Origin: Candidatus Latescibacterota bacterium
Lineage (GTDB): Bacteria; Latescibacterota; UBA2968; UBA8231
Reading direction: 5' to 3'
Length of the DNA stretch: 22,004 nucleotides
NCBI GenBank assembly: GCA_965242865.1
Contig: CBDETK010000009.1
Span: 1 to 22,004, forward strand
Shown: one piece after another, positions 1 through 17,889 of the stretch
Position numbering within the stretch: the stretch's first letter is position 1
How the letters are laid out: each line of letters begins with the position of its first letter
Program-made: the position numbers and the translations under genes
Notes under the pieces: generated by a model
The model's database searches: none
What the model was told of the DNA's origin: nothing
What the model saw: the letters and a program-made list of their open reading frames with translations, nothing else

Positions 1-200
1 CCGAAGCCGACGCGGATGGCTTTCCTTCCGGCCCAGCGGACGCGATACGCCCGGCGCATGCGCCCGGTGCGGACCGGGATGGCGGCGCGAAACTGGCGGC
101 CGGTGCGGCCCTTGCGCAGCTCGTTGGCTACGATGTTGCGGATGCGCCAGTTGGCTTGCCGGAAGCGGATGCCCTGCTGCCGGCGGGGGGTCTGGGTCAT
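1..200 (-). CDS. HK97 gp10-like basic virion protein, 5' part (runs off window edge)
   Basis: Same sequence as the 5' end of 20464-20913. ATG at 200, PVRTGRMRR motif. Confidence 0.6.
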   Translation of the reverse strand, partial: MTQTPRRQQGIRFRQANWRIRNIVANELRKGRTGRQFRAAIPVRTGRMRRAYRVRWAGRKAIRVGF

Positions 201-202
201 GC

Positions 203-2725
203 TTACAGCCTCCAGATGGTCAAGGGGGTAGGGTCGCGGTTGGTGCGGTCGGAGGCTATAAGCAGCCGGCGGTCTGAGCTGCGGCGAGCGAAGTAGAAGA
301 TGGTGTCCACGCCCGCGGCTGAGCCGGACCGCAGCTTATAGTCGGCAGCCGCGTAGCCGGCCACGCCAGACGATTGGGTTCCGGCCGTGCTGTGGATCTC
401 GCCGCCGTAGAACATGCGCACGGGCGCGATTTGGCCGCCGATGTTCATGATCCATAAGCCCGTAGCGAAGTTGGACGGCAGCGTGTAGCCGGTGTCCGTC
501 CAGCGGTTGGCGACCGTGATGTCCACGTTGCCCGAAAAGGCAGGAGCCAGCCCGGGGGCGCGGTCGGGGATATCGTCCGAGTGTTGAAAATCGGCCACGA
601 CGTTGGCCGAGAAAGAGCCGCTTCCACTGACTGCGCCAGATTGGCCGCGGTACTCCATGTACAGATAGACATTGCCCTGCCGCGGGTTTTCCGCCGAAGG
701 ACCGCTAATAGCGACATGCAAAAAGAGGAGGCCCTGCCGTTGGGCGCCGCTATATATCCCAAACGCCAGAAGCCCCACTCCTGGCCTACGAGCCAGGACC
801 AAACCGGGTGTCTGTCGCCGTAAATCTGTCATGGAAATAAGCGTCGACAGCCGTGCCGTGCGCTCAACGGCCTCGCTGCTAAAGGATAGGTTGGTCGGCA
901 CCGTGGGCTGGTTTAGCTGAACGCTCGCCTCTACTTCAAGGATGCCCTGAGCAAGGGCGGCGTTGCCCCTAAGTACCTGCGTATTGCTGTACCGAGTGCC
1001 CGTCAAATCGACCAGCGTCGGCACCGGCATCACCCCGTTGTGCAACTCTAGCAAGCCCGCCGAGCGTCCGCCCCCTCCGCTCACCGCGGGCGCGGGTATA
1101 TCCTGCCAAGCAGCCCCGGTCCACCGCTCGAGGTTGGACGGCGCGCTCGCGTCGTAGCGGACGTCGCCGGCCTTTGGCGGCGTCTCGGCAGAAAGCTCGA
1201 CCGGCTCGTCGTACTGGGGCGTGACGACCGCGCCGCCGGGCAGGTTGGCAATCTGCACCTCGAAGTAGTACCACATGGCGTTGGCCGAGTTGGCAATCTC
1301 TTGGAGGCCCGCCAGCGACTGATAGAGGTCGTCGTCGATGTTGAGCCGAAATTTCGTTGGGTCGTTGCCCAAGCTGTTGGCCACCCGCACGATGACATAC
1401 CAGTTCTGGCGGCGCGTGCCGTGCGTTACGGTGTCTGTGTAGCTGGCCGCGGTCGCTTGGTTGGCGTTGCGGCGCGTGGACTGCGGCCCCGAGATCTGCA
1501 GGTCGCCCGAGCGGGCTTCCCAGCCGCCGGCGGTCGTAGCGCGGTCGAGCGCATCGAGCTCTTGGCCCAGCTTGTCGGCGGGGATGTCGTCTTGGTTGCC
1601 TTCTTCGGCCCAGTTGGCTACGCCGGCCTGTACCCGGGCGTCGACCTGCGCTTGCGTGAGGCCGCCGCCGCCGCCGGACGGGGCGTTGCCCAGCTTGTTG
1701 AGCGGGATTTGGTCTGTGTTGCCGTCTTCGGCCCACGTCGCCGGGTCCGGTCCCTCGACCGCGGCCACCCGCGCATCGACCTGCGCTTGCGTAAGCCCCC
1801 CGGATTCATTGGCCCACTCCGCATCGCCGTCGGACGCGGCCTTGAGCACTTGGCCCACGTTCGGGTTGTCGGCCAGGTCGCGCGCGGCGGGCGTATCCCC
1901 TGAGCCTTGGGTAGCCCACGCCTCGACGCGGGCGCCAATGCGGGCGTCGACCTGCGCTTGGGTGAGGCCGCCGCCGCTCGCGGCCGCGGACGTCCGCACC
2001 CGATAGAGGGTAAAGCCCAGCGTACCGGTGCCATCTTGGTTGGCGATCAGGATGGTATTGTTCGCAGAGCGGCCAATCCAGAAGTCGGTGACGTTGTTGG
2101 CGTCCGGCAGCGCAATGACCTCACCGCCGGTGAGCTGTCGCCCCGGGTTGCTTGTTCCCAGCGCGCGAAACTGGGCGGCGTTGATCCAGAAGCTGCGTCC
2201 GTTGTCGAAGTCGAGCACAACCCAGCCGGCGGCGGGTACGACCAGACCGCTGTCTACGCTGGTCGTGCCCGAGGCGTTGAAGACGAAGTTGCTGCCTATC
2301 TGTTCAAAGACGGTCGAGGCCGGCGCGCTGGGCGGCTGCTCGGCGAGGATGCGCCGCACAATCGCCTCGACCGCCTGTTCGTCCACCGGCTGGCCGCCGT
2401 CGCCGGTGGCCGCGGCCACGTCGGCAAGGTCGAAATCGACCGGCGCAACGCCGCGCTGTACCCACGGGTCGACCAGCGCCCGCGCGCCGCTTTCGTTCCA
2501 GGCCACCCCAGAGCGCGTCACGTTGGGCGCGTCGTAGAGATAGCCAGCCACCCTAATAACCGCCTCGTCGCGCACGTCTTCGGGGGCCAGCGGCGCGTAG
2601 GTATCCACCAGCGCACGCCCGACCGCCAACAGGCGCGTGCCAATCGCCGTCAGTTGGGCGCTGACGACCTCGCCTTCGGGCGCGGCCCGTATCGCGTTGA
2701 GCAGTTGGGCAACCGTTAGAGCCAT
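203..2725 (-). CDS. Head-tail adaptor (HK97 gp6/SPP1 gp15-like N-terminus) fused to a long repeat-containing fibre/receptor-binding region, ~840 aa
   Basis: Start is more likely ATG 2725 (MALTVAQLL, GGAG upstream) than 2767. The first ~95 aa (APEDVRDEAVIRVAGYLYD...GARALVDPW) resemble gp6-type connectors. They are followed by 3 GGLTQAQVDAR repeats, Gly linkers, a YDAS...LERWTGAAW fibre-like motif and beta-rich domains. Confidence 0.7.
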   Translation of the reverse strand: MALTVAQLLNAIRAAPEGEVVSAQLTAIGTRLLAVGRALVDTYAPLAPEDVRDEAVIRVAGYLYDAPNVTRSGVAWNESGARALVDPWVQRGVAPVDFDLADVAAATGDGGQPVDEQAVEAIVRRILAEQPPSAPASTVFEQIGSNFVFNASGTTSVDSGLVVPAAGWVVLDFDNGRSFWINAAQFRALGTSNPGRQLTGGEVIALPDANNVTDFWIGRSANNTILIANQDGTGTLGFTLYRVRTSAAASGGGLTQAQVDARIGARVEAWATQGSGDTPAARDLADNPNVGQVLKAASDGDAEWANESGGLTQAQVDARVAAVEGPDPATWAEDGNTDQIPLNKLGNAPSGGGGGLTQAQVDARVQAGVANWAEEGNQDDIPADKLGQELDALDRATTAGGWEARSGDLQISGPQSTRRNANQATAASYTDTVTHGTRRQNWYVIVRVANSLGNDPTKFRLNIDDDLYQSLAGLQEIANSANAMWYYFEVQIANLPGGAVVTPQYDEPVELSAETPPKAGDVRYDASAPSNLERWTGAAWQDIPAPAVSGGGGRSAGLLELHNGVMPVPTLVDLTGTRYSNTQVLRGNAALAQGILEVEASVQLNQPTVPTNLSFSSEAVERTARLSTLISMTDLRRQTPGLVLARRPGVGLLAFGIYSGAQRQGLLFLHVAISGPSAENPRQGNVYLYMEYRGQSGAVSGSGSFSANVVADFQHSDDIPDRAPGLAPAFSGNVDITVANRWTDTGYTLPSNFATGLWIMNIGGQIAPVRMFYGGEIHSTAGTQSSGVAGYAAADYKLRSGSAAGVDTIFYFARRSSDRRLLIASDRTNRDPTPLTIWRL
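1566..1975 (-). repeat. Three intragenic GGLTQAQVDAR(x7-12)WA repeats
   Basis: Cores at about 1633-1666, 1769-1801 and 1940-1972. Two continue as WAE(D/E)GNxDxIPxxKLG. Confidence 0.9.
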
Positions 2726-3264
2726 CGTGATCTCCGTGAAGGTTTCGCCGGCGGCGCGTCGAGCCAACGTTGAATAAACTCGATCTCCGATTGGGGATAG
2801 GCCGGCCGATCGACGATGGAAACGCCCGTTATGGTGGCCTGCTCGATGACGATATCGCGGTGGCCGCGGTCACGGATTTTCTCATCGACAAACTCAATCG
2901 ACAAGCCCCGAAGCGCCCCGCGGTCGATGAGCGCGGCCGCATCGCGCCCCACGGTGGTATCGGGTAGGTCGATCTCGACGAAGTAGCCGCGATCGCGGCT
3001 GTCGAGCCGCAGGCCGCCGTTAGGGTATTGCGCCAGCAATTGCGAGCGGTCGTGCTGGACGGACGCTATCACCCCGCGGTTGTAGGGCGTCAACGCCCCG
3101 CGCTTGAACTGCTCGCGCAAGGCAAACGCGCCCCGGCCTAATCGGGCTACGTCCCCCCAGATAATAGCCGCCCCGCGCACAGTGCCTAACCCCCTCGCTA
3201 GGTCCCCGCTCTCGTTGCGGGTAAAGGCCAGTGGCAGGGCGGCGGATTGTTTGGCCGCGGTCAC
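2716..3264 (-). CDS. HK97-family prohead protease
   Basis: 182 aa with motifs F.EQF..GAL, HD, LPDT..GRD, GLSIEF, VSIVDRPAYP. GTGA overlap with the capsid stop. Confidence 0.92.
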   Translation of the reverse strand: MTAAKQSAALPLAFTRNESGDLARGLGTVRGAAIIWGDVARLGRGAFALREQFKRGALTPYNRGVIASVQHDRSQLLAQYPNGGLRLDSRDRGYFVEIDLPDTTVGRDAAALIDRGALRGLSIEFVDEKIRDRGHRDIVIEQATITGVSIVDRPAYPQSEIEFIQRWLDAPPAKPSRRSRWL

Positions 3265-4533
3265 TTCGCGGTCGCGACGAAGCGGCGGAAGTTAGCCGCG
3301 CGAATGAGGGCGAAATCCCACATCTGAATGATGGTGAGGGCGACTTGGCCCTTGGCCGCGGCCGTGTACGGATCGCGGATGAGCTGCAGGGACGGCCACA
3401 CGGCCGCGATCGCGGCGCCGGCCAGCCCGCGCCCCTTCGAGGCATAGGCCCACTTGTCGCCGTCGGCGAGCTGCCCGCCCGCGATGTGGTTGGACGAGTT
3501 CATCGACAGCCCCTGCATCTTGAGGATGTCGTAGAGGAACATTTCCACGTCCGCATTGACCAACTTCTTGAATGCGACCAGCGAGCTGCTATCCATCGCC
3601 AACTGCACGTCCTCGAGCATGGTCGCGTACACCCCATCAATCGCCGAGAGGACGTCCCCATGGAGGTCTTCGGCGGTCGCCGTCGAGAAGGTGGCTACCG
3701 TCTCGGTCTGGCCGGCCGCCAGCGCGTTGGACAGGCCGTTGGACGTCAGTTGGGCGTTGCCGTTGAAAATCTGGCTGTCCATCTCGTTGGCCAACGCCAT
3801 CGACAAGTCCTGACGAAGCCGCGCTTCCAACTGCGGCAGCCGCGCCAAATCTTCGAGCTCGAACAGGTACCGCGCCGTGATGCGATGCGGATCCATGACG
3901 ACCGTGGAGAGCGTGGCCGCGTCCGCGTCGTGGGCGGCAGCGCGGGCTACGGTGTCCGGGTCGACGCCGCCGGTGAGCACCGTGTGGACGCGCTCGCCCA
4001 CGGGCACGCTCTCGAAGGTGACGCCCAGCCAGCGGGCTATCGACGTGGTGAACACCCGCGCCAGGAAGCGGCCCGAGCTAACCGGCGCGTCCGCGGCGTT
4101 GAAGTCGCTGACCGCATCGGCCCGCTCTTCGGGCGCGACTAACATAATCAGCGGGATATGGCCGGCGTCCGCGGGGATTTTGAACGCTTCGGCCAGCTCT
4201 TTTTCCGCGCCTTCGGCGTTGCGCTGGCTGAGGGCGCTGACGGCGAAATTGGACAGCAGGGCGCGGCAGGATAGCTGCTGCAGCTCGCGGACTTCGGCGT
4301 CCGGGTTGTCGTCGCGCTTTTGTTCGGCGTCCGCGGTGTCTTCGTCCGCCGTCGAGTCGTCGTCCTGGGCTACGAGCGCGGCCCGCAGCTTAGGCTCGAT
4401 GTCCTGCAGCTCGCGGGTGGCTTTTTCCAGCTCAGCAGCTTCCGCGTCTTCGAGCGCGTCTTTTCCCAGCAAATCGTTGACGCGCTGACGAAGCTCGGAC
4501 TGCCGAACTTGGAGTTTCTGCAAAGGGGGTCAA
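3261..4533 (-). CDS. HK97-fold major capsid protein with N-terminal coiled-coil (delta/scaffold) domain
   Basis: ~420 aa: heptad-rich N-terminus, LRQDLSMALANEMDSQIFNGN, C-terminal LIRDPYT.A.KGQV.L.....WDF...R...F. Open from 4523. AGGAGG RBS and copy B (TTG ACC CCT TTG) point to a TTG start near 4533, with one extra G in copy A. Confidence 0.88.
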
Positions 4534-4556
4534 AGGGAAGTCCTCCTGTGAAAGGG

Positions 4557-5528
4557 TTACACAACAACAAATTCAGAACACCGGAGCCGCGCAAACCGCG
4601 CGCGATCTAAGTGCTCTACGCTGTCGACGCGCCAGACGGGGCGGCTGCCGTCCCACACGTCGAACTCGGATAAGAGGGCGGTCAAGGGCGGCACGTGGTC
4701 GCGGCGGACGATAAAGTCGGTAACGCGCCGCACCGTCGCTTGCGTGTCGCCTTGCTCATCGACCGTGTAATCGACGGTCTCGACCTCGCTGTCGTCGCGG
4801 CGGCTGAACAGGCGGCGGGCGGTAAACGGGCCTTCCGATTGGGGTTGTTGACCATAAAAGACGGGCACGGTGCGTAGGGTAACGAAGTCGGTAGTATCGG
4901 CGGCATCCCCCAACGCAAACAGCGCGGCTTCTTCGGTGCGCGTCACGTTCGTCTCGAAGTACAAAAGCTGCCTACGACTTGAGCCAAACGAGCCGCTCTT
5001 GGCTTGCGAGGTCAGCCCAAACCGGACGCGGCGGCGGCCCAGCGCTATCTCTATGGTCTGAACCGCAGGATAGTCCGACGGAAAAAGCGCCCCCGTGCTC
5101 AGGTCGTCTTCGGCGGCAATGACATTGGGCGGGATAGGCAAGCCCGGCCCAATCGCCCAGCCCACCGAGGGAATAGCGGCAAACGACACTCCAATCGACC
5201 CGCTACCAGCAACAGCCACCGCATTGGTCGGCTGGATGAGCAGTCGTTCGCCGGCGGTACGGGGACTGACAATATCCTTGACGAACGCAAACGCCCATGG
5301 GTCTGTGTTCTCGTTGGCCCACTGTATCCAATCCAACTGCCCACGTGGGGGCAATTGATCGTTGTAAAAAAGAGTCCTGGTCTCGAAACGCCCTTCCCAT
5401 ACGACGTTGGGCGTAATGCGCGGTAAGCCCTGATCTGCAGGCGGCACCGTAAGCGTCTGCGCGGGCACGCCATCCCCGACGTCTTTCCACGTCAACACCC
5501 CGTCGAGCGGATTTAGAATCTCGGTCAT
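4557..5528 (-). CDS. Virion protein, 323 aa; C-terminal ~100 aa resemble a head-closure (SPP1 gp16/HK97 gp7-like) domain, N-terminal ~220 aa unknown
   Basis: ATGA-coupled to the HNH gene. The C-terminus TDFIVRR...WDG...WRVDSVEHLDRARFARLRCSE follows the head-tail joining protein pattern. Confidence 0.55.
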   Translation of the reverse strand: MTEILNPLDGVLTWKDVGDGVPAQTLTVPPADQGLPRITPNVVWEGRFETRTLFYNDQLPPRGQLDWIQWANENTDPWAFAFVKDIVSPRTAGERLLIQPTNAVAVAGSGSIGVSFAAIPSVGWAIGPGLPIPPNVIAAEDDLSTGALFPSDYPAVQTIEIALGRRRVRFGLTSQAKSGSFGSSRRQLLYFETNVTRTEEAALFALGDAADTTDFVTLRTVPVFYGQQPQSEGPFTARRLFSRRDDSEVETVDYTVDEQGDTQATVRRVTDFIVRRDHVPPLTALLSEFDVWDGSRPVWRVDSVEHLDRARFARLRCSEFVVV

Positions 5529-5806
5529 AGCCCCTGCAACCTATCGTCCCATTCGAGTTTACGCGCTTTCACCTCGCGGCTCGTTTTTGCAATATGGCAC
5601 CCCCGGCACAAGGCCTGCAAATTGTGTAGCGACCAGAAGGGGCCGCCTTCGCGCCAATTCTTGACGTGATCGCACTCCAATCGACCAGCCCGCCCGCACT
5701 GGCGGCAGCGCCAGCCATCGCGCTCAAACACCTGCCGCCGAAGCTGTCGCCAGCGCGGAAGCTGGTAGTTGCGCCGCGCTTGGCGCACGCTGACGGAAGG
5801 CTTCAC
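5525..5806 (-). CDS. HNH endonuclease (terminase-associated, HK97 gp74-like)
   Basis: RWRQLRRQVFERDGWRCRQCG...ECDHV...NLQALCRGCHIAKT. Adjacent to terL. Confidence 0.93.
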   Translation of the reverse strand: MKPSVSVRQARRNYQLPRWRQLRRQVFERDGWRCRQCGRAGRLECDHVKNWREGGPFWSLHNLQALCRGCHIAKTSREVKARKLEWDDRLQGL

Positions 5807-5846
5807 GTTTTTTTTTCCGCTTTTAGGCCTGACAAACGATTAAGCT

Positions 5847-7448
5847 TCACGCCAACACCACCCGCGCCCGCGGCAATCCAATCGTCCCCAGCAATAGCTC
5901 GCCCAGCCCCGCGGCAATCACCCCAGCCTGCAGTACGTCGATGCGCCCCCGCGAGCGGGAGCGTTCCAGCGCGGGGTTGCCCGCCGGATCCCGGCGAATC
6001 GAGGATTCGCGTACCGCACTTTCGAATAGCAGGCTTTCTGCCATCGACCAGTCGGCGCGCAACACGTAGCGCTGGAACGCTCGGACATCGTGGCTGCCGT
6101 CGGCCCCGGCGGACGCGCCCTGCCCGCGGTAGACCATCGGCCAACTGATGGCCGCCTGCTGCAGGGCTTGGGCGGCTTCGGCCGCCCGATAGCGGTCGCA
6201 TCCGGCAGCCGACACTTCCTGATTTTTTAGCTGGTCCGCGCAGTCAAGCAGAAATTCTCCGACCGGCGTCACTCGACCCGGGTACACCTTCAGCTCGCCG
6301 CGATCGGCCATGCGCTGGTACAGGCCGCCCACCCCATCGCGGGCACCGCGGTCGATTAAATTCGGCGTCGAGGGGAACGCGCCCCATGCTTCGGCCCGTC
6401 CCGTAGCTGGCCAAAAAGCGACCAGCGCGGTCATACTCGATGCGCCCCCCAGGTCGAAGCCAATCACGCACGGCCCCCTTCGCGGCGCAGGCTCTTTGTG
6501 CACGCACGCCATCCAATCGGTTAAGCTGCACAAACTTTCACGCGATGGATCCTGGGGCTGGTTGAGGTCGTAGGCGCGGAACGAGGGCTGATCGGCGGGG
6601 CTGTCGAGCGCCCGTTGCGCCATGTCGCGCATATACTCCATGGACTTAATGCCGCGGCGTAAACCCGGATTAGCCGCATGCCAGGTCTGGGGCTGGTCGA
6701 TGGCCGCGGTCAACGGCGCGGCATATTCATGCCAGCAGACTCCGCGCTGAGCGCGGTCGCGCATCTCCTTGAACATCGGCCCCATCCCCTGAATGCTGAT
6801 GCAGAGCAAGCGCCCGTTGCGACCGCTGGTCGAGGACAGCACCGCGTTCCATAGCTCGCGGTGTGTCTCTTCGAGCAAGCCGGCCTCATCGATAATCGCT
6901 AAGTCGCTGCCGATGGCGTGCCCGGTCGCGCGGTCGCTGGCGAGGAATTTGACCGCGGCCCCGCGGTCGCCTTCGACGCGACCCGGTTGGGGCGTTTGCC
7001 GGTCGATTATTTCGAAGCCGCTCGCTTCGGCCGTTAATGAGATGGCCAGCCGCAGCTCTTTGGCCAGCTCGCCAGTCAGGCTGATGACGACCCCGCGCCA
7101 ATCGGGCCGATTGAGCGGCCCCACCAAGTGGCCCAGCACGTAGGCGGCTATTAGGCCAGACTTCCCATTCTTCCGCGCCACCGACAGCCCGCTTTCGCGC
7201 GCAGTGTGCGCTTCGCGGAGGAAGTGCTGCTGCCAATCGTCAATCAGGAAGGGTTCGCCCTGCAACGGCCCCGAGGGCACTTTCAGCTTGGCTTCGGCCC
7301 ACGCAAAAAAGCCGTCGAGGTCCGGTTCATACTCGGCTGCCGAACGCAGACATACGGACGCAGCGGCCTTTTTCTCCTTCTGCTTGCGCCGCCACTCACG
7401 CATATACGCCGCGTGATTGGCCCTTCTTTTTTTGGTCTCGTCCTTCAC
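5847..7448 (-). CDS. terL: Terminase large subunit (HK97/cos-type family)
   Basis: 533 aa with adenine-binding motif (PFLIDDWQ), Walker A VARKNGKS, Walker B LAIIDEAG, motif III ISIQG, W.AANP.L, nuclease GFDLG and C-terminal RID. Confidence 0.95.
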   Translation of the reverse strand: MKDETKKRRANHAAYMREWRRKQKEKKAAASVCLRSAAEYEPDLDGFFAWAEAKLKVPSGPLQGEPFLIDDWQQHFLREAHTARESGLSVARKNGKSGLIAAYVLGHLVGPLNRPDWRGVVISLTGELAKELRLAISLTAEASGFEIIDRQTPQPGRVEGDRGAAVKFLASDRATGHAIGSDLAIIDEAGLLEETHRELWNAVLSSTSGRNGRLLCISIQGMGPMFKEMRDRAQRGVCWHEYAAPLTAAIDQPQTWHAANPGLRRGIKSMEYMRDMAQRALDSPADQPSFRAYDLNQPQDPSRESLCSLTDWMACVHKEPAPRRGPCVIGFDLGGASSMTALVAFWPATGRAEAWGAFPSTPNLIDRGARDGVGGLYQRMADRGELKVYPGRVTPVGEFLLDCADQLKNQEVSAAGCDRYRAAEAAQALQQAAISWPMVYRGQGASAGADGSHDVRAFQRYVLRADWSMAESLLFESAVRESSIRRDPAGNPALERSRSRGRIDVLQAGVIAAGLGELLLGTIGLPRARVVLA

Positions 7449-7546
7449 TTTTTCATGCCCACGTGAAAGCGCGTGTTCCCCCTTGTGCGGTTTGTCCCCC
7501 TAGGCGCGACCGCCACAGGGGTCCCCGCCGCCGCCCCCGCCGTCCC

Positions 7547-7732
7547 CTTTCCACACCATCTTGTGGAAAAGATAGCAAGATGTATGGGCATCGCTAGTTT
7601 TCCACATTCTTTCCACATCCTTTCCACATCCTTCCTTCATAGGCGGGTCCACAAATCCACAGCCCCTAGTAGTGGTAAGGACAAATCCACAGCCTTGGAT
7701 CGTAGTACTAGGGGCTGTGGATTTGTGGATAA
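7547..7732. promoter_or_regulatory. DnaA-box-like array, candidate replication origin
   Basis: Perfect TTATCCACA on the minus strand (7724-7732), TTTTCCACA at 7598-7606 and 7562-7570 (minus), CTTTCCACA at 7547, 7609 and 7620, plus several AAATCCACA/TCCACA. About 10 TCCACA cores in 186 bp. Confidence 0.75.
7648..7729. repeat. Perfect 24-bp inverted repeat with an internal 14-bp direct copy
   Basis: tccacaaatccacagcccctagta (7648-7671) is the reverse complement of tactaggggctgtggatttgtgga (7706-7729). acaaatccacagcc is repeated at 7681-7694. Confidence 0.93.
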
Positions 7733-7794
7733 AAAAAAGTGCTGGACATCCGCAGACACATCATATTTATTTGTCTGTGCAATCAGGAGGCTCT

Positions 7795-7962
7795 ATGAAC
7801 TGTGCAGTCTGCGGCAGCCCAATCGATGGGTATCGCCGTGCCTTAAACCCTCGCATCAAGACGTGCTCGCCGCCCTGCTCAAAGCGCCACGCCATGAATC
7901 TGCGGAACTTGGCCGCGCGGAATAAGCGTAAACGCGAGCGCGCACAAAGAAAGGAGCGATGA
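7795..7962 (+). CDS. Small Cys4 zinc-finger protein with basic tail, 55 aa
   Basis: AGGAGG at 7785-7790 and ATG at 7795. CAVC...CSPPC then RNKRKRER. ATGA-coupled to the lysozyme. Confidence 0.75.
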   Translation: MNCAVCGSPIDGYRRALNPRIKTCSPPCSKRHAMNLRNLAARNKRKRERAQRKER

Positions 7963-8540
7963 TGGTAGAGCATGCCATCCTCGTTTCCGTCCTCAAATCG
8001 GAGGGCGGCTACGTCAACGACCCCAACGACAGCGGCGGCGAGACCTATGCCGGCATTGCCCGGCACTACAATCCCGGCTGGGAAGGCTGGGACGAAGTGG
8101 ACCGCTGGACCGGCAATAAGAACTCGCCAGACTTGCAAGACTTGCTGATGCCCATGCTGCTGCGTTTTTGGGATACTTACCTGAAGTCCAACCATATCGA
8201 GCACGTGCCGGGGCCGTTGCGGCTTCAGTACGCGCACATGGCCGCAACCAGCCCCAAGCGCGCCATCGCCGCCCTGCAGCAATTGGTGGTGTGGACGAAT
8301 CCCCTGTTGGGGTCGCCGAAGTTCGTCGATGGGCTGTGGGGCAGGAATACCCGGCAGGCCGTAGAGGACTGGTTGTCACCGGACCTCAACGCATCCGACA
8401 TGCAGAAGGGCTACTGCATAGCCTGCATAGCCCTGTACTGCGACTCGGTACGGGATCGTCCGAGTAATCAACGCTTCCTGCATGGTTGGGCGCGCCGGAC
8501 CGTCGCTGTCTGGCAAGAGGCGATCGGCCATGCAGCTTGA
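7959..8540 (+). CDS. Glycoside hydrolase family 108 lysozyme (endolysin) with C-terminal peptidoglycan-binding region
   Basis: EGGYVNDPNDSGGETYAGI catalytic motif, VDGLWG.NT, RFLHGW.RR. GGAG RBS. Confidence 0.92.
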   Translation: MMVEHAILVSVLKSEGGYVNDPNDSGGETYAGIARHYNPGWEGWDEVDRWTGNKNSPDLQDLLMPMLLRFWDTYLKSNHIEHVPGPLRLQYAHMAATSPKRAIAALQQLVVWTNPLLGSPKFVDGLWGRNTRQAVEDWLSPDLNASDMQKGYCIACIALYCDSVRDRPSNQRFLHGWARRTVAVWQEAIGHAA

Positions 8541-8700
8541 AACGTGGCTATACATTCCGCTCGACGACGAGGTGCCGCTGAGGATACGACTTCAGCTGCG
8601 CACTCCCATCGGAAAATTCAAAACGGTGATAGGCTTTTGCTCGATTACTATTCACAATCGAGAGTGTAAGCCGCGCTGGAGAGGCATCGCATTAAATTAG
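8530..8700 (+). CDS. Hypothetical protein, 56 aa
   Basis: GAGG at 8517-8520 and ATG at 8530 overlapping the lysozyme end. Intact in both copies, no recognisable motif. Confidence 0.4.
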   Translation: MQLETWLYIPLDDEVPLRIRLQLRTPIGKFKTVIGFCSITIHNRECKPRWRGIALN

Positions 8701-8838
8701 TTTAGCGACTTGGCTAAATCGCCCGTCGCTACCCCTGTCGGCACCGGAATGCTGGATCGATGGCCAGCTAATGGGGACAGAAGAGCGGATAAAAGCCGAA
8801 TAAACGCTCTCGTTTTTCCCCTATGAAGAACGATCCAA

Positions 8839-8866
8839 ACTAACGATAAATCCTATTATCGTTCGT
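8839..8866. other. dif-like / tyrosine-recombinase-type site (11-6-11)
   Basis: ACTAACGATAA-ATCCTA-TTATCGTTCGT. The ATAA-N6-TTAT core is as in E. coli dif (GGTGCGCATAA-TGTATA-TTATGTTAAAT). Arms extend to a 12/13 inverted match (8837-8868). Confidence 0.55.
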
Positions 8867-8901
8867 TTGTACGGCTTATGAAGTCCAGTCGAGAATTTCG
8901 A

Positions 8902-10026
8902 TCATGCTTCTTGTTCCATTAGGCCCGAAAGGGCCGCCGCTTTGTCCACCGCCATACCCCCCCCAACCATCGATTGAAACGCCCGCGCACGCCCGCTTAA
9001 ATCGGACGCGAACAGGCGGTCGAAGTTAAGCTGCACGCGCTCGTCCAGCTTGATCGACAGCTCTTCAGCTACGATTTCAGCTACGGGCTGAATCGTCCCA
9101 TGCAGGAAGCGTCGCCAGCTCTCGCGCTGGCTGGTTCCGTCCGAACTTTCTTCGAGTAACGCGGGCGGCACGCCCAACGCCGCGGTGATGATGCGGCTGA
9201 CTTCTACGCGGAGCGTCCCTAAGCTGTCGGGGGGATTGGGGCCTATCCGCTGGGGCGTCCAGTCCTGCCGCGGCGCGGAAAAGCGCCCTTCGCCCCAGCC
9301 GCTGGCCGTGGTCTCAACGAGCACCGTTTTGCCGCGGATACTGCCGAGTGCTTTGCGGGTGTCTTCCAGCGGATCGTACATCGTGCCGTCGGGCTTTTGC
9401 CGCGGGGAAGGGTCGCGCGGCAAGGCAATGATATTGCCTACCTGCGCGGCCGCTTCTTCGCCCAGCCGCGTCTCCAGCAGGTTGGCCAAGCGTTGGGTCG
9501 CCGCCGCGCGCTCCAGCGGCGCTTGGCCCTTCCAGGGCTGCTCAGGGCGGCGGCCAATCATAAAATGCAGCACGCCATCCCAGGGCGCGCGGCGCGTGCG
9601 GTTGCCCGAAGGCCCCAGCACGTCGAGCCGATAGCGCCAGCGCTGAGGATGGACGCCCGGGCCGTTGACCTCCCACGACGAAGCAATCCCCGCGGCGAGC
9701 ATCCCGTCGTCGAGCACGTCGAGCAGCCAGCAGCTTTCGCCCGTATAGACAAATTCGCGGGCTACCAGCCCCAGCATCGACGGACCGCACACGCCCTGCG
9801 CTCGGCGCCCGCGCACGGTCGCGGAGGCAAAGGCGCGCTCCCACAAGCCCGCGCACGCTTCTTGGGCGGCCAGCCCCGCGCGGATGGCTTCGTTGCTGGC
9901 TTGGGCCTGCTCCTCGACGGCGCGCTCAATGGCGGAGGAGAAGGAGATGGCGCGCCACTCGGCGAGCGCCAGTTGATGGACGCGCTGGCGGAGGACCGCG
10001 GGCCGAAACCAATCGAGGGCCTTCAC
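8902..10026 (-). CDS. Portal protein (HK97-like, short), 374 aa
   Basis: Likely GTG start at 10026, GTGA-coupled to the upstream ORF. Motifs GVLHF......PW.G.APL, I.AALGVPP.LL, F...TIQP....AEELS.KL, D...RA......V.GG. Confidence 0.88.
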   Translation of the reverse strand: MKALDWFRPAVLRQRVHQLALAEWRAISFSSAIERAVEEQAQASNEAIRAGLAAQEACAGLWERAFASATVRGRRAQGVCGPSMLGLVAREFVYTGESCWLLDVLDDGMLAAGIASSWEVNGPGVHPQRWRYRLDVLGPSGNRTRRAPWDGVLHFMIGRRPEQPWKGQAPLERAAATQRLANLLETRLGEEAAAQVGNIIALPRDPSPRQKPDGTMYDPLEDTRKALGSIRGKTVLVETTASGWGEGRFSAPRQDWTPQRIGPNPPDSLGTLRVEVSRIITAALGVPPALLEESSDGTSQRESWRRFLHGTIQPVAEIVAEELSIKLDERVQLNFDRLFASDLSGRARAFQSMVGGGMAVDKAAALSGLMEQEA

Positions 10027-10154
10027 TTGTGATGCTTCCGCTCGCGCTTGCGCCGGTGATGCTCGGCGTGAACCAGCTTGCCCAGCATGGCCGTGCAGAA
10101 AATGGTTAGGACATCGAACAGGTCGATGCCCTCTTGGATGAGCCAATCGCCCAT
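10023..10154 (-). CDS. Small membrane protein, 43 aa (holin-like candidate)
   Basis: GAGGAGG RBS and ATG at 10154. One hydrophobic stretch (LFDVLTIFCTAMLGKLV) followed by HHRRKRERKHHK. Confidence 0.55.
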   Translation of the reverse strand: MGDWLIQEGIDLFDVLTIFCTAMLGKLVHAEHHRRKRERKHHK

Positions 10155-10167
10155 AGGGGAAACCTCC

Positions 10168-10617
10168 TCAGAGCAGTTGTAGTGCGATACGCGCCAGCGG
10201 ATGCGAGCCAAACGTCAAGCGTATCAGCTTCTTGAGCGTGAAGGTGCGGGCCGCCTTGCGACGGAGGGCGCGGCCGGTCTTGTCGAGCTTTTCTTGGAAC
10301 ACCGCCCTCGCAATGCGCCCAGACTGGCGGGCAAACGCCAGCCTATAGGCCCTACGGATGGCCTTGACCGCGCGCAGGCGCCAGATGAACTGATAGACCC
10401 AGTAGGGAACGCGGCTGCCGAAGCCGACGCGGATGGCTTTCCTTCCGGCCCAGCGGACGCGATACGCCCGGCGCATGCGCCCGGTGCGGACCGGGATGGC
10501 GGCGCGAAACTCGCGGCCGGTGCGGCCCTTGCGCAGCTCGTTGGCTACGATGTTGCGGATGCGCCAGTTGGCTTGCCGGAAGCGGATGCCCTGCTGCCGG
10601 CGGGGGGTCTGGGTCAT
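10168..10617 (-). CDS. HK97 gp10-like, highly Arg-rich virion/neck protein, 149 aa
   Basis: AAIPVRTGRMRRAY resembles the gp10 PVxTGxLRxS motif, followed by VGF....PYW.Y. Starts 2 nt after the fibre gene stop. Confidence 0.6.
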   Translation of the reverse strand: MTQTPRRQQGIRFRQANWRIRNIVANELRKGRTGREFRAAIPVRTGRMRRAYRVRWAGRKAIRVGFGSRVPYWVYQFIWRLRAVKAIRRAYRLAFARQSGRIARAVFQEKLDKTGRALRRKAARTFTLKKLIRLTFGSHPLARIALQLL

Positions 10618-10619
10618 GC

Positions 10620-13134
10620 TTACAGCCTCCAGATGGTCAAGGGGGTAGGGTCGCGGTTGGTGCGGTCGGAGGCTATAAGCAGCCGGCGGTCTGAGTTGCG
10701 GCGAGCGAAGTAGAAGATGGTGTCCACGCCCGCGGCTGAGCCGGACCGCAGCTTATAGTCGGCAGCCGCGTAGCCGGCCACGCCAGACGATTGGGTTCCG
10801 GCCGTGCCGTGGATCTCGCCGCCGTAGAACATGCGCGCGGGCGCGATTTGGCCGCCGATGTTCATGATCCATAAGGCCGTAGCGAAGTTGGACGGCAGCG
10901 TGTAGCCGGTGTCCGTCCAGCGGTTGGCGACCGTGATGTCCACGTTGCCCGAAAAGGCTGGGAATAGGTCGGTCGGGGATATCGTCCGAGTGTTGAAAAT
11001 CGGCCACGACGTTGGCCGAGAAAGAGCCGCTTCCACTGACTGCGCCAGATTGGCCGCGGTACTCCATGTACATATAGACATTGCCCTCCCGCGGGCTTTC
11101 CGCCGAAGGACCGCTAATAGCGACATGCAAAATGAGGGAGCCCTGCCATTGGGCGCCGCTATATATAAAAAACCCCAGAAGCCCCACTCCTGGCCTATTA
11201 GCCAGGACCAAACCGGGTGTCCGTCGCCGTAAATCTGTCATGGAAATAAGCGTCGACTGCCGTGCCGTGCGCTCAACGGCCTCGCTGCTAAAGGATAGGT
11301 TGACCGGCACCGTGGGCTGGTTTAGCTGAACGCTCGCCTCTACTTCAAGGATGCCCTGAGCAAGGGCGGCGTTGCCCCTAAGTACCTGCGTATTGCTGTA
11401 CCGATTGCCCGTCAAATCGACCAGCGTCGGCACCGGCATCACCCCGTTGTGCAACTCTCGCAAGCCCGCCGAGCGTCCGCCCCCTCCGCTCACCGCGGGC
11501 GCGGGTATATCCTGCCAAGCAGCCCCGGTCCACCGCTCGAGGTTGGACGGCGCGCTCGCGTCGTAGCGGACGTCGCCGGCCTTTGGCGGCGTCTCGGCAG
11601 AAAGCTCGACCGGCTCGTCGTACTGGGGCGTGACGACCGCGCCGCCGGGCAGGTTGGCAATCTGCACCTCGAAGTAGTACCACATGGCGTTGGCCGAGTT
11701 GGCAATCTCTTGGAGGCCCGCCAGCGACTGATAGAGGTCGTCGTCGATGTTGAGCCGAAATTTCGTTGGGTCGTTGCCCAAGCTGTTGGCCACCCGAACG
11801 ATGACATACCAGTTCTGGCGGCGCGTGCCGTGCGTTACGGTGTCTGTGTAGCTGGCCGCGGTCGCTTGGTTGGCGTTGCGGCGCGTGGACTGCGGCCCCG
11901 AGATCTGCAGGTCGCCCGAGCGGGCTTCCCAGCCGCCGGCGGTCGTGGCGCGGTCGAGCGCATCGAGCTCTTGGCCCAGCTTGTCGGCGGGGATGTCGTC
12001 TTGGTTGCCTTCTTCGGCCCAGTTGGCTACGCCGGCCTGTACCCGGGCGTCGACCTGCGCTTGCGTGAGGCCGCCGCCGCCGCCGGACGGGGCGTTGCCC
12101 AGCTTGTTGAGCGGGATTTGGTCTGTGTTGCCGTCTTCGGCCCACGTCGCCGGGTCCGGTCCCTCGACCGCGGCCACCCGCGCATCGACCTGGGCTTGCG
12201 TGAGGCCGCCGGATTCATTGGCCCACTCCGCATCGCCGTCGGACGCGGCCTTGAGCACTTGGCCCACTTGCGGGTTGTCGGCCAGGTCGCGCGCGGCGGG
12301 CGTATCCCCTGAGCCTTGCGTAGCCCACGCCTCGACGCGGGCGCCAATGCGGGCGTCGACCTGCGCTTGGGTGAGGCCGCCGCCGCTCGCGGCAGCCGCC
12401 GTCCGCACCCGATAGAGGGTAAAGCCCAGCGTGCCGGTGCCATCTTGGTTGGCGATCAGGATGGTATTGTTCGCAGAGCGGCCAATCCAGAAGTCGGTGA
12501 CGTTGTTGGCGTCCGGCAGCGCAATGACCTCACCGCCGGTGAGATGTCGCCCCGGGTTGCTTGTTCCCAGCGCGCGAAACTGGGCGGCGTTGATCCAGAA
12601 GCTGCGTCCGTTGTCGAAGTCGAGCACAACCCAGCCGGCGGCGGGTACGACCAGACCGCTGTCTACGCTGGTCGTGCCCGAGGCGTTGAAGACGAAGTTG
12701 CTGCCTATCTGTTCAAAGACGGTCGAGGCCGGCGCGCTGGGCGGCTGCTCGGCGAGGATGCGCCGCACAATCGCCTCGACCGCTTCTTCGTCCACCGGCT
12801 GGCCGCCGTCGCCGGTGGCCGCGGCCACGTCGGCAAGGTCGAAATCGACCGGCGCAACGCCGCGCTGTACCCACGGGTCGACCAGCGCCCGCGCGCCGCT
12901 TTCGTTCCAGGCCACCCCAGAGCGCGTCACGTTGGGCGCGTCGTAGAGATAGCCAGCCACCCTAATAACCGCCTCGTCGCGCACGTCTTCGGGGGCCAGC
13001 GGCGCGTAGGTATCCACCAGCGCACGCCCGACCGCCAACAGGCGCGTGCCAATCGCCGTCAGTTGGGCGCTGACGACCTCGCCTTCGGGCGCGGCCCGTA
13101 TCGCGTTGAGCAGTTGGGCAACCGTTAGAGCCAT
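10620..13134 (-). CDS. Adaptor/fibre fusion, allele B; apparent frameshift near 10960
   Basis: A 19-nt segment of A is replaced by 11 nt (net -8). Removing one G from the ggg run gives in-frame DIPDRPIPAFSG, so the gene is probably intact with a read error. Confidence 0.65.
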
Positions 13135-13673
13135 CGTGATCTCCGTGAAGGTTTCGCCGGCGGCGCGTCGAGCCAACGTTGAATAAACTCGATCTCCGAT
13201 TGGGGATAGGCCGGCCGATCGACGATGGAAACGCCCGTTATGGTGGCCTGCTCGATGACGATATCGCGGTGGCCGCGGTCACGGATTTTCTCATCGACAA
13301 ACTCAATCGACAAGCCCCGAAGCGCCCCGCGGTCGATGAGCGCGGCCGCATCGCGCCCCACGGTGGTATCGGGTAGGTCGATCTCGACGAAGTAGCCGCG
13401 ATCGCGGCTGTCGAGCCGCAGGCCGCCGTTAGGGTATTGCGCCAGCAATTGCGAGCGGTCGTGCTGGACGGACGCTATCACCCCGCGGTTGTAGGGCGTC
13501 AACGCCCCGCGCTTGAACTGCTCGCGCAAGGCAAACGCGCCCCGGCCTAATCGGGCTACGTCCCCCCAGATAATAGCCGCCCCGCGCACAGTGCCTAACC
13601 CCCTCGCTAGGTCCCCGCTCTCGTTGCGGGTAAAGGCCAGTGGCAGGGCGGCGGATTGTTTGGCCGCGGTCAC
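13125..13673 (-). CDS. HK97-family prohead protease (copy B)
   Basis: Translation identical to 2716-3264. Confidence 0.92.
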   Translation of the reverse strand: MTAAKQSAALPLAFTRNESGDLARGLGTVRGAAIIWGDVARLGRGAFALREQFKRGALTPYNRGVIASVQHDRSQLLAQYPNGGLRLDSRDRGYFVEIDLPDTTVGRDAAALIDRGALRGLSIEFVDEKIRDRGHRDIVIEQATITGVSIVDRPAYPQSEIEFIQRWLDAPPAKPSRRSRWL

Positions 13674-14943
13674 TTCGCGGTCGCGACGAAGCGGCGGAAG
13701 TTAGCCGCGCGAATGAGGGCGAAATCCCACATCTGAATGATGGTGAGGGCGACTTGGCCCTTGGCCGCGGCCGTGTACGGATCGCGGATGAGCTGCAGGG
13801 ACGGCCACACGGCCGCGATCGCGGCGCCGGCCAGCCCGCGCCCCTTCGAGGCATAGGCCCACTTGTCGCCGTCGGCGAGCTGCCCGCCCGCGATGTGGTT
13901 GGACGAGTTCATCGACAGCCCCTGCATCTTGAGGATGTCATAGAGGAACATTTCCACGTCCGCATTGACCAACTTCTTGAATGCGACCAGCGAGCTGCTA
14001 TCCATCGCCAACTGCACGTCCTCGAGCATGGTCGCGTACACCCCATCAATCGCCGAGAGGACGTCCCCATGGAGGTCTTCGGCGGTCGCCGTCGAGAAGG
14101 TGGCTACCGTCTCGGTCTGGCCGGCCGCCAGCGCGTTGGACAGGCCGTTGGACGTCAGTTGGGCGTTGCCGTTGAAAATCTGGCTGTCCATCTCGTTGGC
14201 CAACGCCATCGACAAGTCCTGACGAAGCCGCGCTTCCAACTGCGGCAGCCGCGCCAAATCTTCGAGCTCGAACAGGTACCGCGCCGTGATGCGATGCGGA
14301 TCCATGACGACCGTGGAGAGCGTGGCCGCGTCCGCGTCGTGGGCGGCAGCGCGGGCTACGGTGTCCGGGTCGACGCCGCCGGTGAGCACCGTGTGGACGC
14401 GCTCGCCTACGGGCACGCTCTCGAAGGTGACGCCCAGCCAGCGGGCTATCGACGTGGTGAACACCCGCGCCAGGAAGCGGCCCGAAGACTAACCGGCGCG
14501 TCCGCGGCGTTGAAGTCGCTGACCGCATCGGCCCGCTCTTCGGGCGCGACTAACATAATCAGCGGGATATGGCCGGCGTCCGCGGGGATTTTGAACGCTT
14601 CGGCCAGCTCTTTTTCCGCGCCTTCGGCGTTGCGCTGGCTGAGGGCGCTGACGGCGAAATTGGACAGCAGGGCGCGGCAGGATAGCTGCTGCAGCTCGCG
14701 GACTTCGGCGTCCGGGTTGTCGTCGCGCTTTTGTTCGGCGTCCGCGGTGTCTTCGTCCGCCGTCGAGTCGTCGTCCTGGGCTACGAGCGCGGCCCGCAGC
14801 TTAGGCTCGATGTCCTGCAGCTCGCGGGTGGCTTTTTCCAGCTCAGCAGCTTCCGCGTCTTCGAGCGCGTCTTTTCCCAGCAAATCGTTGACGCGCTGAC
14901 GAAGCTCGGACTGCCGAACTTGGAGTTTCTGCAAAGGGGTCAA
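13670..14943 (-). CDS. Major capsid protein (copy B), split by 2 extra nt near 14485-14488
   Basis: cccgaagactaacc vs cccgagctaacc in A. ORF halves are 14446-14943 and 13670-14464. Confidence 0.8.
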
Positions 14944-14966
14944 AGGGAAGTCCTCCTGTGAAAGGG

Positions 14967-15938: not shown

Positions 15939-16216
15939 AGCCCCTGCAACCTATCGTCCCATTCGAGTTTACGCGCTTTCACCTCGCGGCTCGTTTTTGC
16001 AATATGGCACCCCCGGCACAAGGCCTGCAAATTGTGTAGCGACCAGAAGGGGCCGCCTTCGCGCCAATTCTTGACGTGATCGCACTCCAATCGACCAGCC
16101 CGCCCGCACTGGCGGCAGCGCCAGCCATCGCGCTCAAACACCTGCCGCCGAAGCTGTCGCCAGCGCGGAAGCTGGTAGTTGCGCCGCGCTTGGCGCACGC
16201 TGACGGAAGGCTTCAC
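15935..16216 (-). CDS. HNH endonuclease (copy B)
   Basis: Translation identical to 5525-5806. Confidence 0.93.
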   Translation of the reverse strand: MKPSVSVRQARRNYQLPRWRQLRRQVFERDGWRCRQCGRAGRLECDHVKNWREGGPFWSLHNLQALCRGCHIAKTSREVKARKLEWDDRLQGL

Positions 16217-16256
16217 GTTTTTTTTTCCGCTTTTAGGCCTGACAAACGATTAAGCT

Positions 16257-17858: not shown

Positions 17859-17889
17859 TTTTTCATGCCCACTGTATGGGCATCGCTAG

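Follow-up and report, generated by a model that had tools for sequence, protein, structure and literature searches.

Contig organization and extrachromosomal state

The DNA under study poses the question of whether a short, tandemly repeated unit devoted mainly to head assembly, packaging and lysis is a complete mobile element and, if so, to which class it belongs. The window analyzed is the entire 22,004-bp contig C9 of a genome assembled in 13 contigs. Repeat alignment shows that the unit measures 10,417 bp in copy A and 10,296 bp in copy B:

1..10417: unit copy A, with no reading frame interrupted
10418..20713: unit copy B, matching copy A at 99.2-99.7% identity; 118 bp are deleted, six indels shift the frame and 54 positions are mismatched
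20714..22004: third, partial copy, 100% identical to 1-1291

Positions 1-7462 and 10418-17872 are 99.22% identical with 47 mismatches and 7 gap openings, 7581-10417 and 17873-20713 are 99.72% identical, and the intervening 118 bp (7463-7580) are missing from copy B. The fibre gene accounts for 46 of the 54 mismatches. The six frameshifts of copy B are in coding sequence, and its indel sites are located in the fibre, capsid (2), zinc-finger (3) and portal genes; those in the zinc-finger gene are single-base insertions that jointly restore the frame. Copy B is either defective or poorly polished. Part of the population may be defective.

The element occurs outside the chromosome as head-to-tail or circular units. 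The 5.6 Mb chromosome (C13) contains no copy, and variants of the element are found on C9, C12 and C6. Contig C12 comprises 2.09 copies of a 10,505-bp unit that are 99.98% identical. In addition, the unit end is joined to the unit start (10417 to 1) in independent Logan contigs from runs of two samples. The GC content of the element is 64% compared to 60.6% for the host.

The repeat might instead have arisen as an artefact of assembly, or from a piece of a larger, ordinary prophage that was amplified or collapsed. The 2.1 copies and terminal overlap are typical of assemblers on small circles, and the indels in copy B resemble long-read errors. However, the element is unmatched by other DNA of the genome, the junction of 10417 to 1 recurs in separate Logan assemblies, relatives that share its size and gene order form circles of 9.5-11.7 kb with direct terminal repeats (DTRs) in other collections, and the att repeats of integrated relatives are about 9-11 kb apart. 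An artefact is largely refuted and very improbable, and the preliminary description of a complete small unit that is not a piece of a larger prophage is upheld.

Gene content of the unit

The features of copy A are as follows:

203..2767, minus strand: 854-aa predicted head-tail adaptor fused to a modular fibre/receptor-binding protein (AF2 model, VIA-align)
2716..3264, minus strand: prohead serine protease (S78; PF04586, E 3.8e-22)
3261..4523, minus strand: HK97-type major capsid protein (PF05065, E 7.5e-12)
4557..5528, minus strand: 323-aa predicted neck stopper (head-closure, Hc1-type; structure model, VIA-align)
5525..5806, minus strand: HNH endonuclease, packaging partner of TerL (PF01844, E 3.8e-8)
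5847..7448, minus strand: large terminase, TerL (phrog_9, E 4e-54; 697 homologues at E <= 1e-10)
7449..7794: divergent intergenic region with a DnaA-box cluster and a 23-bp inverted repeat; putative origin and/or control region
7795..7962, plus strand: 55-aa basic C4 zinc-finger protein (weak TraR/DksA-type leads)
7959..8540, plus strand: endolysin (GH108, E 1.8e-12; PG_binding_3, E 4.3e-8)
8541..8901: non-coding region with an 8-6-8 palindrome, ATAA-N6-TTAT core at about 8846
8902..10146, minus strand: portal protein (PF04860, E 1.2e-12)
10168..10617, minus strand: 149-aa neck/tail-completion protein, probable HK97 gp10-like (Ne1), crossing the arbitrary unit boundary

Ten genes fill ~9.6 of the 10.4 kb (~92% coding), and non-coding DNA of appreciable length is confined to 7449-7794 and 8541-8901. 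The head set is complete, consisting of the HK97-type capsid protein, protease and portal, and is accompanied by a packaging pair, TerL plus HNH, and by an endolysin. By our reading, the N-terminal part of the capsid protein appears coiled-coil in character. The true start of the portal probably lies downstream of the listed TTG.

Searches of every ORF of 90 aa or more with Pfam, PHROGs and NCBIfam revealed no tube, tape measure, replicase or integrase, nor any family of an alpA or primase-replicase module, for which no coding room remains. No sheath or nozzle was found by the same searches, and the models of the 854-aa and 323-aa proteins likewise showed no tube, tape measure or nozzle. The integrase family PF00589 is missing from C9, C12 and C6, and its three matches in the genome are all on the chromosome. 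As the preliminary description held, neither a replicase, an integrase nor a repressor could be recognised in the unit, and the same is true of a tail tube and a tape measure. The element also lacks an identifiable replication initiator or polymerase of its own, and tRNA and Rfam searches of it returned no tRNA and no Rfam family.

The neck proteins and the fibre

The two unknown proteins were modelled and matched neck components rather than a Rep, integrase or tail-tube protein. Residues about 15-105 of the 854-aa protein are predicted to adopt the HK97 gp6-type adaptor fold, and the remainder is predicted to be fibre. The model aligned with 3jvo_A (Z 8.0, rmsd 2.6, 78 aa), 8fwe_R3 (Z 8.1) and 6tba_2A (Z 7.2) in VIA-align. 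Residues 150-259 resemble the tip of T7 gp17 (Z 6.3) and those from 737 to 854 are similar to phage K gp144 and phi812 (Z 6.7-6.9). Moreover, PF24243 is present at the C-terminal end of two homologues, and ORFs of a co-binned tailed phage share 29-30% identity with residues 726-854.

The 323-aa protein, for which 6 homologues were retrieved among 1.84 billion representatives, is modelled as a stopper barrel to which both the N- and the C-terminal end contribute, with ~200 hypervariable residues inserted between them. The best 20 VIA-align rows are all phage, gene-transfer-agent (GTA) or satellite neck entries, the PBSX protein XkdH, or the NMR structure 2kz4, and include 8hdr_A (Z 9.4), 6tba_3A (8.6), 3f3b_A (8.5) and 9mu2_C (8.1). 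Both models are of moderate confidence (pLDDT 69 for the 323-aa and 62 for the 854-aa protein); Z values of 7-9 are in the range that VIA-align calls common, and the stopper and adaptor assignments rest on the consistency of the hits. The 149-aa ORF probably is a gp10-type (Ne1) neck protein, with weak matches to PF04883 (E 0.0035, below the cut-off) and phrog_5 (E 0.0088).

Taken together, the adaptor, stopper and probable gp10-type protein constitute a neck of the siphovirus type. The initial view that tail genes are lacking therefore holds for the tube, tape measure, sheath and nozzle, but not for the adaptor-fibre fusion, the stopper and the probable gp10-type protein.

A putative DnaA-dependent origin

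Dense clusters of canonical DnaA boxes characterize oriC-type, DnaA-dependent replicons, although such clusters also are found at replicase-dependent origins and promoters. Nine of the ten [AT]TCCACA heptamers in the unit lie within 180 bp (7549-7730), compared to a chromosomal density of 0.23 per kb. Three of the nine are strict TTWTNCACA boxes, one of which is an exact TTATCCACA; 3 strict boxes are present in the host origin region next to dnaA. Clusters of 5 or more heptamers per 400 bp occur elsewhere in the 6 Mb genome only on C12, and the cluster was seen in 0 of 37 relatives examined. The likeness to oriC-type replicons is one of sequence, and it is consistent with the earlier suggestion that host DnaA may serve for initiation.

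The companion suggestion, that host Xer is used for integration or resolution, fared poorly. The sole ATAA-N6-TTAT palindrome (8846) matches a candidate host dif site at C13:916804 at 10 of 22 arm positions by our count, and there is no integrated copy in the genome. A Xer-exploiting element (IMEX) is not supported on these grounds.

A plasmid-like episome that is inherited mainly vertically via a DnaA-dependent origin, with particle genes that are rarely used or decaying, would accommodate the DnaA-box cluster, the copy B frameshifts and the plasmid-type PF03090 replicases of certain relatives. Against this proposal, the frames are intact in copy A and in the C12 copies, TerL, protease, lysin and portal are conserved while the distal parts diversify, and host CRISPR spacers are aimed at the element. 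An episome of this kind is improbable.

A widespread family of mini-elements

The element is a member of a large, widespread family of mini-elements with conserved gene order, of which no published description was found. For the best 119 non-self TerL matches, the longest contig is 9-12.5 kb in 46 cases and 19.5-24.5 kb in 10. Five family members are circular or have DTRs; the DTR circles, which the preliminary description had proposed to seek as ~10 kb circular contigs, have the same gene order. Integrated relatives are about 8.9-10.8 kb, and possess tyrosine integrases and att repeats of 14-17 bp at tRNA 3′ ends. Integrases are present in L016, L017, L022 and L095, and the PF03090 plasmid-type replicase only in L081 and L097. 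Among 15 IMG/VR relatives, one has an integrase, two have PF03090 and 12 have neither.

The family has a single variable slot; it lies between portal and TerL and houses an integrase, a plasmid-type replicase, or neither as in the window. Members without integrase and replicase tend to have a long fibre gene instead: the gap from the protease (or capsid gene) to the portal is at least 2.3 kb in 15 of the 18 members that lack both genes and in none of the 7 that carry an integrase or replicase, counts that come from kin and are not independent.

Co-resident variants, a tailed phage and CRISPR targeting

The three co-resident variants are near-identical in TerL (99.8% amino acid identity), protease (99%) and lysin (99%), but diverge in the stopper (42%), gp10-like protein (38-40%) and fibre (54-62%). 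Conservation of TerL, protease, lysin and portal (95-99.8%) in combination with diverse distal parts points to selection on particle function. A conserved core with divergent connectors has been tied to tail compatibility by the authors of the capsid-forming PICI (cf-PICI) study (10.1101/2025.02.11.637232).

Contigs C4 and C11 of the same bin, the only ones with PF10145, carry a tailed phage with a tape measure. The fibre C-terminal domain and the endolysin are common to this phage and the element. The phage may merely have the same host.

The element is targeted by CRISPR spacers of the host. Two of the 41 spacers match it with 2-3 mismatches of 35 (median 14), and both protospacers have a 5′ TGGCC flank:

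7048..7082, plus strand: protospacer of a host CRISPR spacer, 2/35 mismatches
2550..2584, minus strand: protospacer of a second host CRISPR spacer, 3/35 mismatches

The host link rests on these two spacers, binning of small contigs being weak evidence.

These data bear on whether the unit is a domesticated GTA-like head module. RcGTA chains match the adaptor (6tba_2A) and stopper (6tba_3A) models, and replication and integration genes are absent. However, the element is not chromosomal, exists as three diverging variants and is CRISPR-targeted. In a search of 30 same-genus genomes, TerL was absent from 29 and the thirtieth gave only distant matches of 32-42% identity. Domestication hardly is tenable.

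An autonomous minimal virus is rather unlikely but has more to commend it. The portal, adaptor-fibre, stopper with insertion and gp10-like protein would form a neck-only, podovirus-like entry device that operates without a helper, and no genome in the tailed-phage lineage would be smaller. An endolysin is encoded by the element itself, as is a fibre with receptor-binding-type domains, and homology between this fibre and a domain of the co-resident tailed phage suggests direct host binding. The hypervariability of the three distal proteins is what parts in contact with the host would be expected to show, one run has k-mer depths of up to about 240-290, and size is conserved even though most IMG/VR relatives have neither integrase nor PF03090. 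Conversely, no nozzle, tube, ejection protein, membrane-piercing protein, replicase or holin was found, the neck proteins match tail-docking parts of siphoviruses and myoviruses, and total absence of a replication protein would have few precedents. It is quite unlikely that the element and the integrase-less, replicase-less majority of the family are free-living 'neck-only' viruses of ~10 kb, the smallest genomes of the tailed-phage lineage, which would rely entirely on host DnaA and the replisome at an oriC-like origin, infect through fibres mounted directly on a dodecameric adaptor and replace the tail with a plug of stopper plus insertion.

Comparison with known satellites

The unit is best viewed as a tail-less satellite virus that persists as an episome in the co-binned bacterium, forms its own capsid and resembles cf-PICIs and MiniFlayer, a reading assigned a probability of about 0.5. 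DNA would be replicated from the DnaA-box cluster at 7549-7730 by DnaA and the replisome of the host, perhaps aided by helper factors, to produce concatemers from which TerL and HNH would cut unit-length genomes into a small capsid. The neck then may dock the tail of a co-infecting tailed phage, or the particle may ride on that phage, with the adaptor-fused fibres binding the host surface.

Among features that sit less easily with a satellite, a small terminase (TerS) was not found by Pfam, PHROGs or NCBIfam, no holin was found among the ORFs, and the gp10-like match is below curated cut-offs.

The cf-PICIs, including EcCIEDL933, are described as elements of about 10-15 kb with HK97-type capsid, protease, portal, adaptor, connector, HNH and TerL, but no tail tube (10.1101/2022.09.08.507074; 10.1101/2025.02.11.637232). 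The element similarly has its own capsid, protease, portal and head-tail connectors without a tail tube, and pairs near-identical packaging modules with divergent connector genes (10.1101/2025.02.11.637232). Furthermore, the integrated relatives L016, L017 and L022 carry an integrase at a tRNA att site. The TerL group next in similarity, at 29-30% identity, includes L098, which has the cf-PICI layout of integrase, capsid, protease, portal, HNH, TerS, TerL and gp6-like connector; TerL of the element is 30% identical or less to elements of this type. The element differs from cf-PICIs in the absence of an integrase, an alpA or primase-replicase module and a recognisable TerS, in its extrachromosomal state, in its endolysin and adaptor-fused fibre, and in the gene order TerL, HNH, stopper, capsid, protease, adaptor-fibre, gp10-like, portal. 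An own fibre and endolysin are not described for tail-stealing cf-PICIs.

The Streptomyces satellites MulchRoom and MiniFlayer encode their own capsid, packaging genes and head-tail adaptor without a primase or replicase, and have DTR genomes, low GC that matches their helpers, and virulent helpers (PMC10690885). MulchRoom has an integrase and an HTH protein and uses the tail of its helper, whereas MiniFlayer has no integrase and attaches by short tail fibres to the neck of its helper (PMC10690885). Compared by description, the element likewise has capsid and packaging genes without a primase or replicase. The split between these satellites, as that report presents it, is echoed in L016, with integrase, HTH and a bare adaptor, versus the window, with an adaptor-fibre and no integrase. 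Differences from the satellites as described are that GC of the element exceeds that of its host, and that resemblance of its fibre domain to the fibre of the tailed phage points to host binding, unlike the MiniFlayer fibres on the helper neck.

The preliminary description had judged that the unit fits neither tailed phages nor capsid-forming PICIs. This judgement needs revision: the unit combines the capsid, neck and packaging set of cf-PICIs with the pattern of no integrase, no replicase and short fibres described for MiniFlayer (PMC10690885), and other members of its family possess either a tyrosine integrase, at tRNA att sites, or a PF03090 replicase.

The great majority of marine VEIMEs encode no capsid and are packaged into heads of helper size as concatemers; about 20% of VEIMEs lack an integrase (10.1101/2022.07.26.501625). 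They resemble the element in small size, concatemers in long-read data and the lack of an integrase in some members, and differ in that the element encodes a full head (10.1101/2022.07.26.501625).

Structure and completeness of the unit

The 22,004-bp stretch makes up the entire contig C9 in a genome of 13 contigs and 6.0 Mb. Self-comparison of this contig revealed 2.1 head-to-tail copies of a single unit.

Copies of the unit on the contig
1-10417: copy A; all reading frames open
10418-20713: copy B; 99.2-99.7% identity to copy A; lacks 7463-7580
Final 1,291 bp: partial third copy; identical to 1-1291

Copies A and B differ at 54 mismatched positions, 46 of which are in the fibre gene, and the coding sequence of copy B shows six frameshifting indels relative to copy A. 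In copy B the fibre gene has lost 8 bp, the capsid gene bears two indels and the portal gene one, the zinc-finger gene has gained a single base at three places, and a deletion of 118 bp removes two DnaA boxes. Copy B is either defective or else badly polished; two alleles may be joined in the contig as a heterodimer, or the assembly may be chimeric. Two other contigs of the same genome bear variants of the element: on C12 (21,965 bp), a variant with a unit of 10,505 bp is present in 2.09 copies that are 99.98% identical to each other, and C6 (8,345 bp) represents a third.

Four public runs, belonging to two studies, have Logan contigs that cover the unit, and contigs in two of these runs, which are two samples of one study, span the junction 10417->1 or its equivalent. 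No copy of the element was found on the 5.6-Mb chromosome (C13) in searches at the DNA or protein level. In view of the junction contigs, the repeat structure and the lack of a chromosomal copy, the unit is real, complete and circular or tandem, rather than a fragment of a larger prophage, and the reading as an assembly artefact is close to excluded. No entry of the phage and plasmid collections compared by Megablast matched the unit.

Gene content

Gene identities in copy A were assigned by protein-family searches.

Genes of copy A
2716-3264: prohead protease (family search)
3261-4523: HK97-type capsid protein (family search)
5525-5806: HNH nuclease (family search)
5847-7448: large terminase, TerL (family search)
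From 7795: 55-aa zinc-finger ORF (good ribosome-binding site)
7959-8540: GH108 plus PG_binding_3 endolysin (family search)
8902-10146: portal (family search)
10168-10617: gp10-like neck protein (weak family match)

Family searches found no small terminase on the element, a hydrophobicity scan yielded no credible holin candidate, and tRNA genes and Rfam families were absent. Promoter and terminator scans gave signal no higher than shuffled sequence.

Two large ORFs, encoding 323- and 854-aa proteins, lack a family match. The 323-aa protein has only six homologues among 1.84 billion representatives, and the proteins at its position in five relatives gave no convincing alignment. The matches of its structural model (pLDDT 69) in VIA-align were almost exclusively to neck entries: the 20 best rows (Z 6.5-9.4) consist of neck structures from phages, GTAs or satellites, together with the PBSX protein XkdH and the NMR structure 2kz4. 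Foldseek alone returned no row at E <= 0.001. The predicted barrel is formed by the conserved N- and C-terminal ends, which enclose an insertion of ~200 residues. Despite the GTA structures among these matches, the reading of the element as a gene-transfer agent is very nearly excluded.

In the model of the 854-aa protein (pLDDT 62), residues 15-105 aligned by VIA-align with HK97 gp6 (3jvo_A; Z 8.0, rmsd 2.6, 78 residues) and also matched the adaptors of phage Milano, RcGTA, Douge, cyanophage A4 and SaPI1. Domains beyond this region matched fibre and receptor-binding modules (Z 5.9-6.9), and two homologues of the protein end in a Pfam 'phage tail tip' domain. Foldseek with this model produced only weak rows with low TM-scores. 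The N-terminal domain had no match in Pfam and no sequence match in the PDB as a single sequence or a 12-sequence profile, and only one of the 12 member sequences matched PHROG Ad1 (E 0.028). The adaptor identity of this domain is thus a model-based prediction for which sequence-only tests were negative or weak. Within the fibre gene, positions 1620-2511 contain four diverged copies of a 64-nt repeat. The repeated peptide unit that they encode, with the consensus GLTQAQVDARV and then a W-A-E-x-G-N motif, also occurs in fibre homologues on other 10-12 kb contigs.

As modelled, the two large proteins are a neck stopper and an adaptor-fibre, and neither is a replicase, integrase or tube protein, in line with the preliminary description of an element with no recognisable replication or integration genes.

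Replication and integration

The TerL and zinc-finger/lysin operons are divergent, and nine of the ten [AT]TCCACA heptamers of the unit fall between them, within 7549-7730; the cluster includes three strict TTWTNCACA boxes. The same cluster is present on C12; at a density of at least five heptamers per 400 bp, it occurs nowhere else in the 6-Mb genome, and no comparable cluster was present in any of the 37 relatives examined. The chromosomal origin beside dnaA (~3.686 Mb, at the skew minimum) has three strict boxes. The cluster supports putative host-DnaA-dependent initiation at 7549-7730, so that the proposed use of host DnaA gains sequence support, although not proof.

The companion proposal, that host Xer acts on the element, fared poorly. 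A candidate host dif site with a CATAA-N6-TTATG core, at C13:916804-916831, lies ~3 kb away from the point where cumulative GC skew is highest. The sole ATAA-N6-TTAT palindrome of the element resembles it at 10 of 22 arm positions (hand count), and an integrated copy is absent from C13.

A family of relatives with a variable slot

TerL has 697 homologues at E <= 1e-10. Among the best 119 non-self matches (51-87% identity), the longest contig measured 9-12.5 kb in 46 cases and 19.5-24.5 kb in 10. Single-protein TerL pattern scans detected no relative in genome contigs and only distant ones in IMG/VR, whereas alignment-based scans succeeded, collecting 17 loci from titled genomes (TerL identity 43-57%) and 21 IMG/VR records (48-70%). 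The titles name Dehalococcoidia and Chloroflexota, Latescibacterota, Vicinamibacterales, Terriglobia, Alpha-, Gamma- and Deltaproteobacteria and Ca. Palauibacter. A TerL search in 60 related genomes gave distant matches only, in two of the 60.

Gene order is maintained across the family: TerL, HNH, a variable ORF, capsid, protease, the adaptor domain with or without a long extension, portal and a variable slot. Terminal overlaps of 49-127 bp mark five members as circles; ~10 kb circular contigs with this gene set, which the preliminary description proposed to seek, do exist. Four members are listed as DTR by IMG/VR with CheckV completeness of 10-14%. Complete circles of the family score 9-14% complete by CheckV and are consequently discarded as fragments.

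In closed MAG chromosomes, three copies adjoin tRNA genes with flanking 14-17 bp direct repeats 8.9-10.8 kb apart, and each carries a tyrosine integrase (40-47% identical among themselves). Among 15 IMG/VR records, an integrase was present in one, a PF03090 plasmid-type replicase in two and neither in 12. Other slot genes are mostly orphans: comparison of 70 slot ORFs from relatives plus six reference ORFs revealed just three related pairs, and Pfam assigned a family to only one of the 10 largest slot ORFs not tested before. The distance from the protease (or capsid gene) to the portal was at least 2.3 kb in 15 of the 18 members lacking both genes and in 0 of 7 with an integrase or replicase (the duplicate L085, the distant L033, the partial L077, and also L026 and L029, left out), a count that is only suggestive as the sequences are related. 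The family follows a modular design within a fixed ~10-11 kb: a single slot carries an integrase, a replicase or neither, and seems to be traded against an adaptor-fused fibre.

Individual relatives show further features. An ORF running into TerL in the integrated Dehalococcoidia locus (L016:9557-10100) opens with an HNH_3 domain, besides the separate HNH gene downstream of TerL. The chromosomal relative L026 has five tandem 126-bp units close upstream of TerL (8960-9715). A direct repeat with 4,017-bp spacing, including a 300-nt stretch reported as 100% identical, precedes another integrated element (L017:1-4317). The circular, replicase-bearing L097 also encodes an AAA_33-type kinase-like protein (9754-10224; E 6.2e-8).

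Classification of the element

A siphovirus-type neck normally docks a tail. Judged from its genes, the element has the set of a capsid-forming satellite, namely head, siphovirus-type neck and TerL plus HNH, with no tube. The earlier view that it fits neither known class is thus not upheld, and the family splits as do the Streptomyces satellites MulchRoom and MiniFlayer: MulchRoom, which encodes an integrase and an HTH protein, takes its helper's tail, MiniFlayer has short fibres and no integrase, and a replicase is lacking in both (PMC10690885). On the basis of this gene set and split, an episomal, helper-dependent satellite virus is therefore rated the most likely reading, with a probability of about one in two. 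An autonomous virus with a neck alone ranks second and is considered unlikely. No published description of the family was found in the literature, but one may still exist.

The satellite reading would extend capsid-forming satellites beyond cultured Proteobacteria, Firmicutes and Streptomyces to uncultured phyla, the relatives' titles naming Chloroflexota, Latescibacterota, Acidobacteriota, Gemmatimonadota and several proteobacterial classes. The family also offers a test of the minimal needs of a particle-forming dsDNA element.

Co-resident variants, host and candidate helper

Amino acid identities were determined for C12 and C6 with the 22,004-bp contig as reference.

Protein identity among co-resident variants
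TerL: 99.8%
Protease: 99%
Endolysin: 99%
Portal: 95-97%
HNH: 95-96%
Capsid: 88-98%
Fibre: 54-62%
Stopper: about 42%
gp10-like: 38-40%

The same pattern of near-identical packaging genes and divergent neck genes is seen in cf-PICIs, in which near-identical packaging modules accompany differing adaptor and connector genes that were shown experimentally to decide which phage tails a cf-PICI head accepts (10.1101/2025.02.11.637232).

The RpoB core of C13 shares 76% identity with its counterpart in a MAG titled Ca. Latescibacterota and 55-64% with four other comparators. The chromosome carries a CRISPR array (G000:C13:3522934-3527423) of 42 37-nt repeats and 41 spacers. Two spacers, neighbours near one array end, match the element with two and three mismatches of 35, compared to a median best match of 14 mismatches over all spacers, and both protospacers are preceded by a TGGCC motif. 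A third spacer (3523260) matches C12 with 6/36 mismatches. The three co-resident variants, with identical packaging genes but exchanged neck and fibre genes, together with the matching spacers, constitute a natural experiment on tail or host compatibility.

One tailed phage, which has an HK97-type capsid gene and a tape measure, is represented by three variants of 92-99% identity, contigs C4, C11 and C2. ORFs of this phage share 29-30% identity with the final 130 residues of the element's fibre, and its endolysin is 30-35% identical to that of the element. The phage is a candidate helper, or merely a phage of the same host. C4:12436-12543 contains two host-type CRISPR repeats (at most four substitutions) around one 34-nt spacer that has no other match in the small contigs; the pair looks like a phage-borne mini-array.
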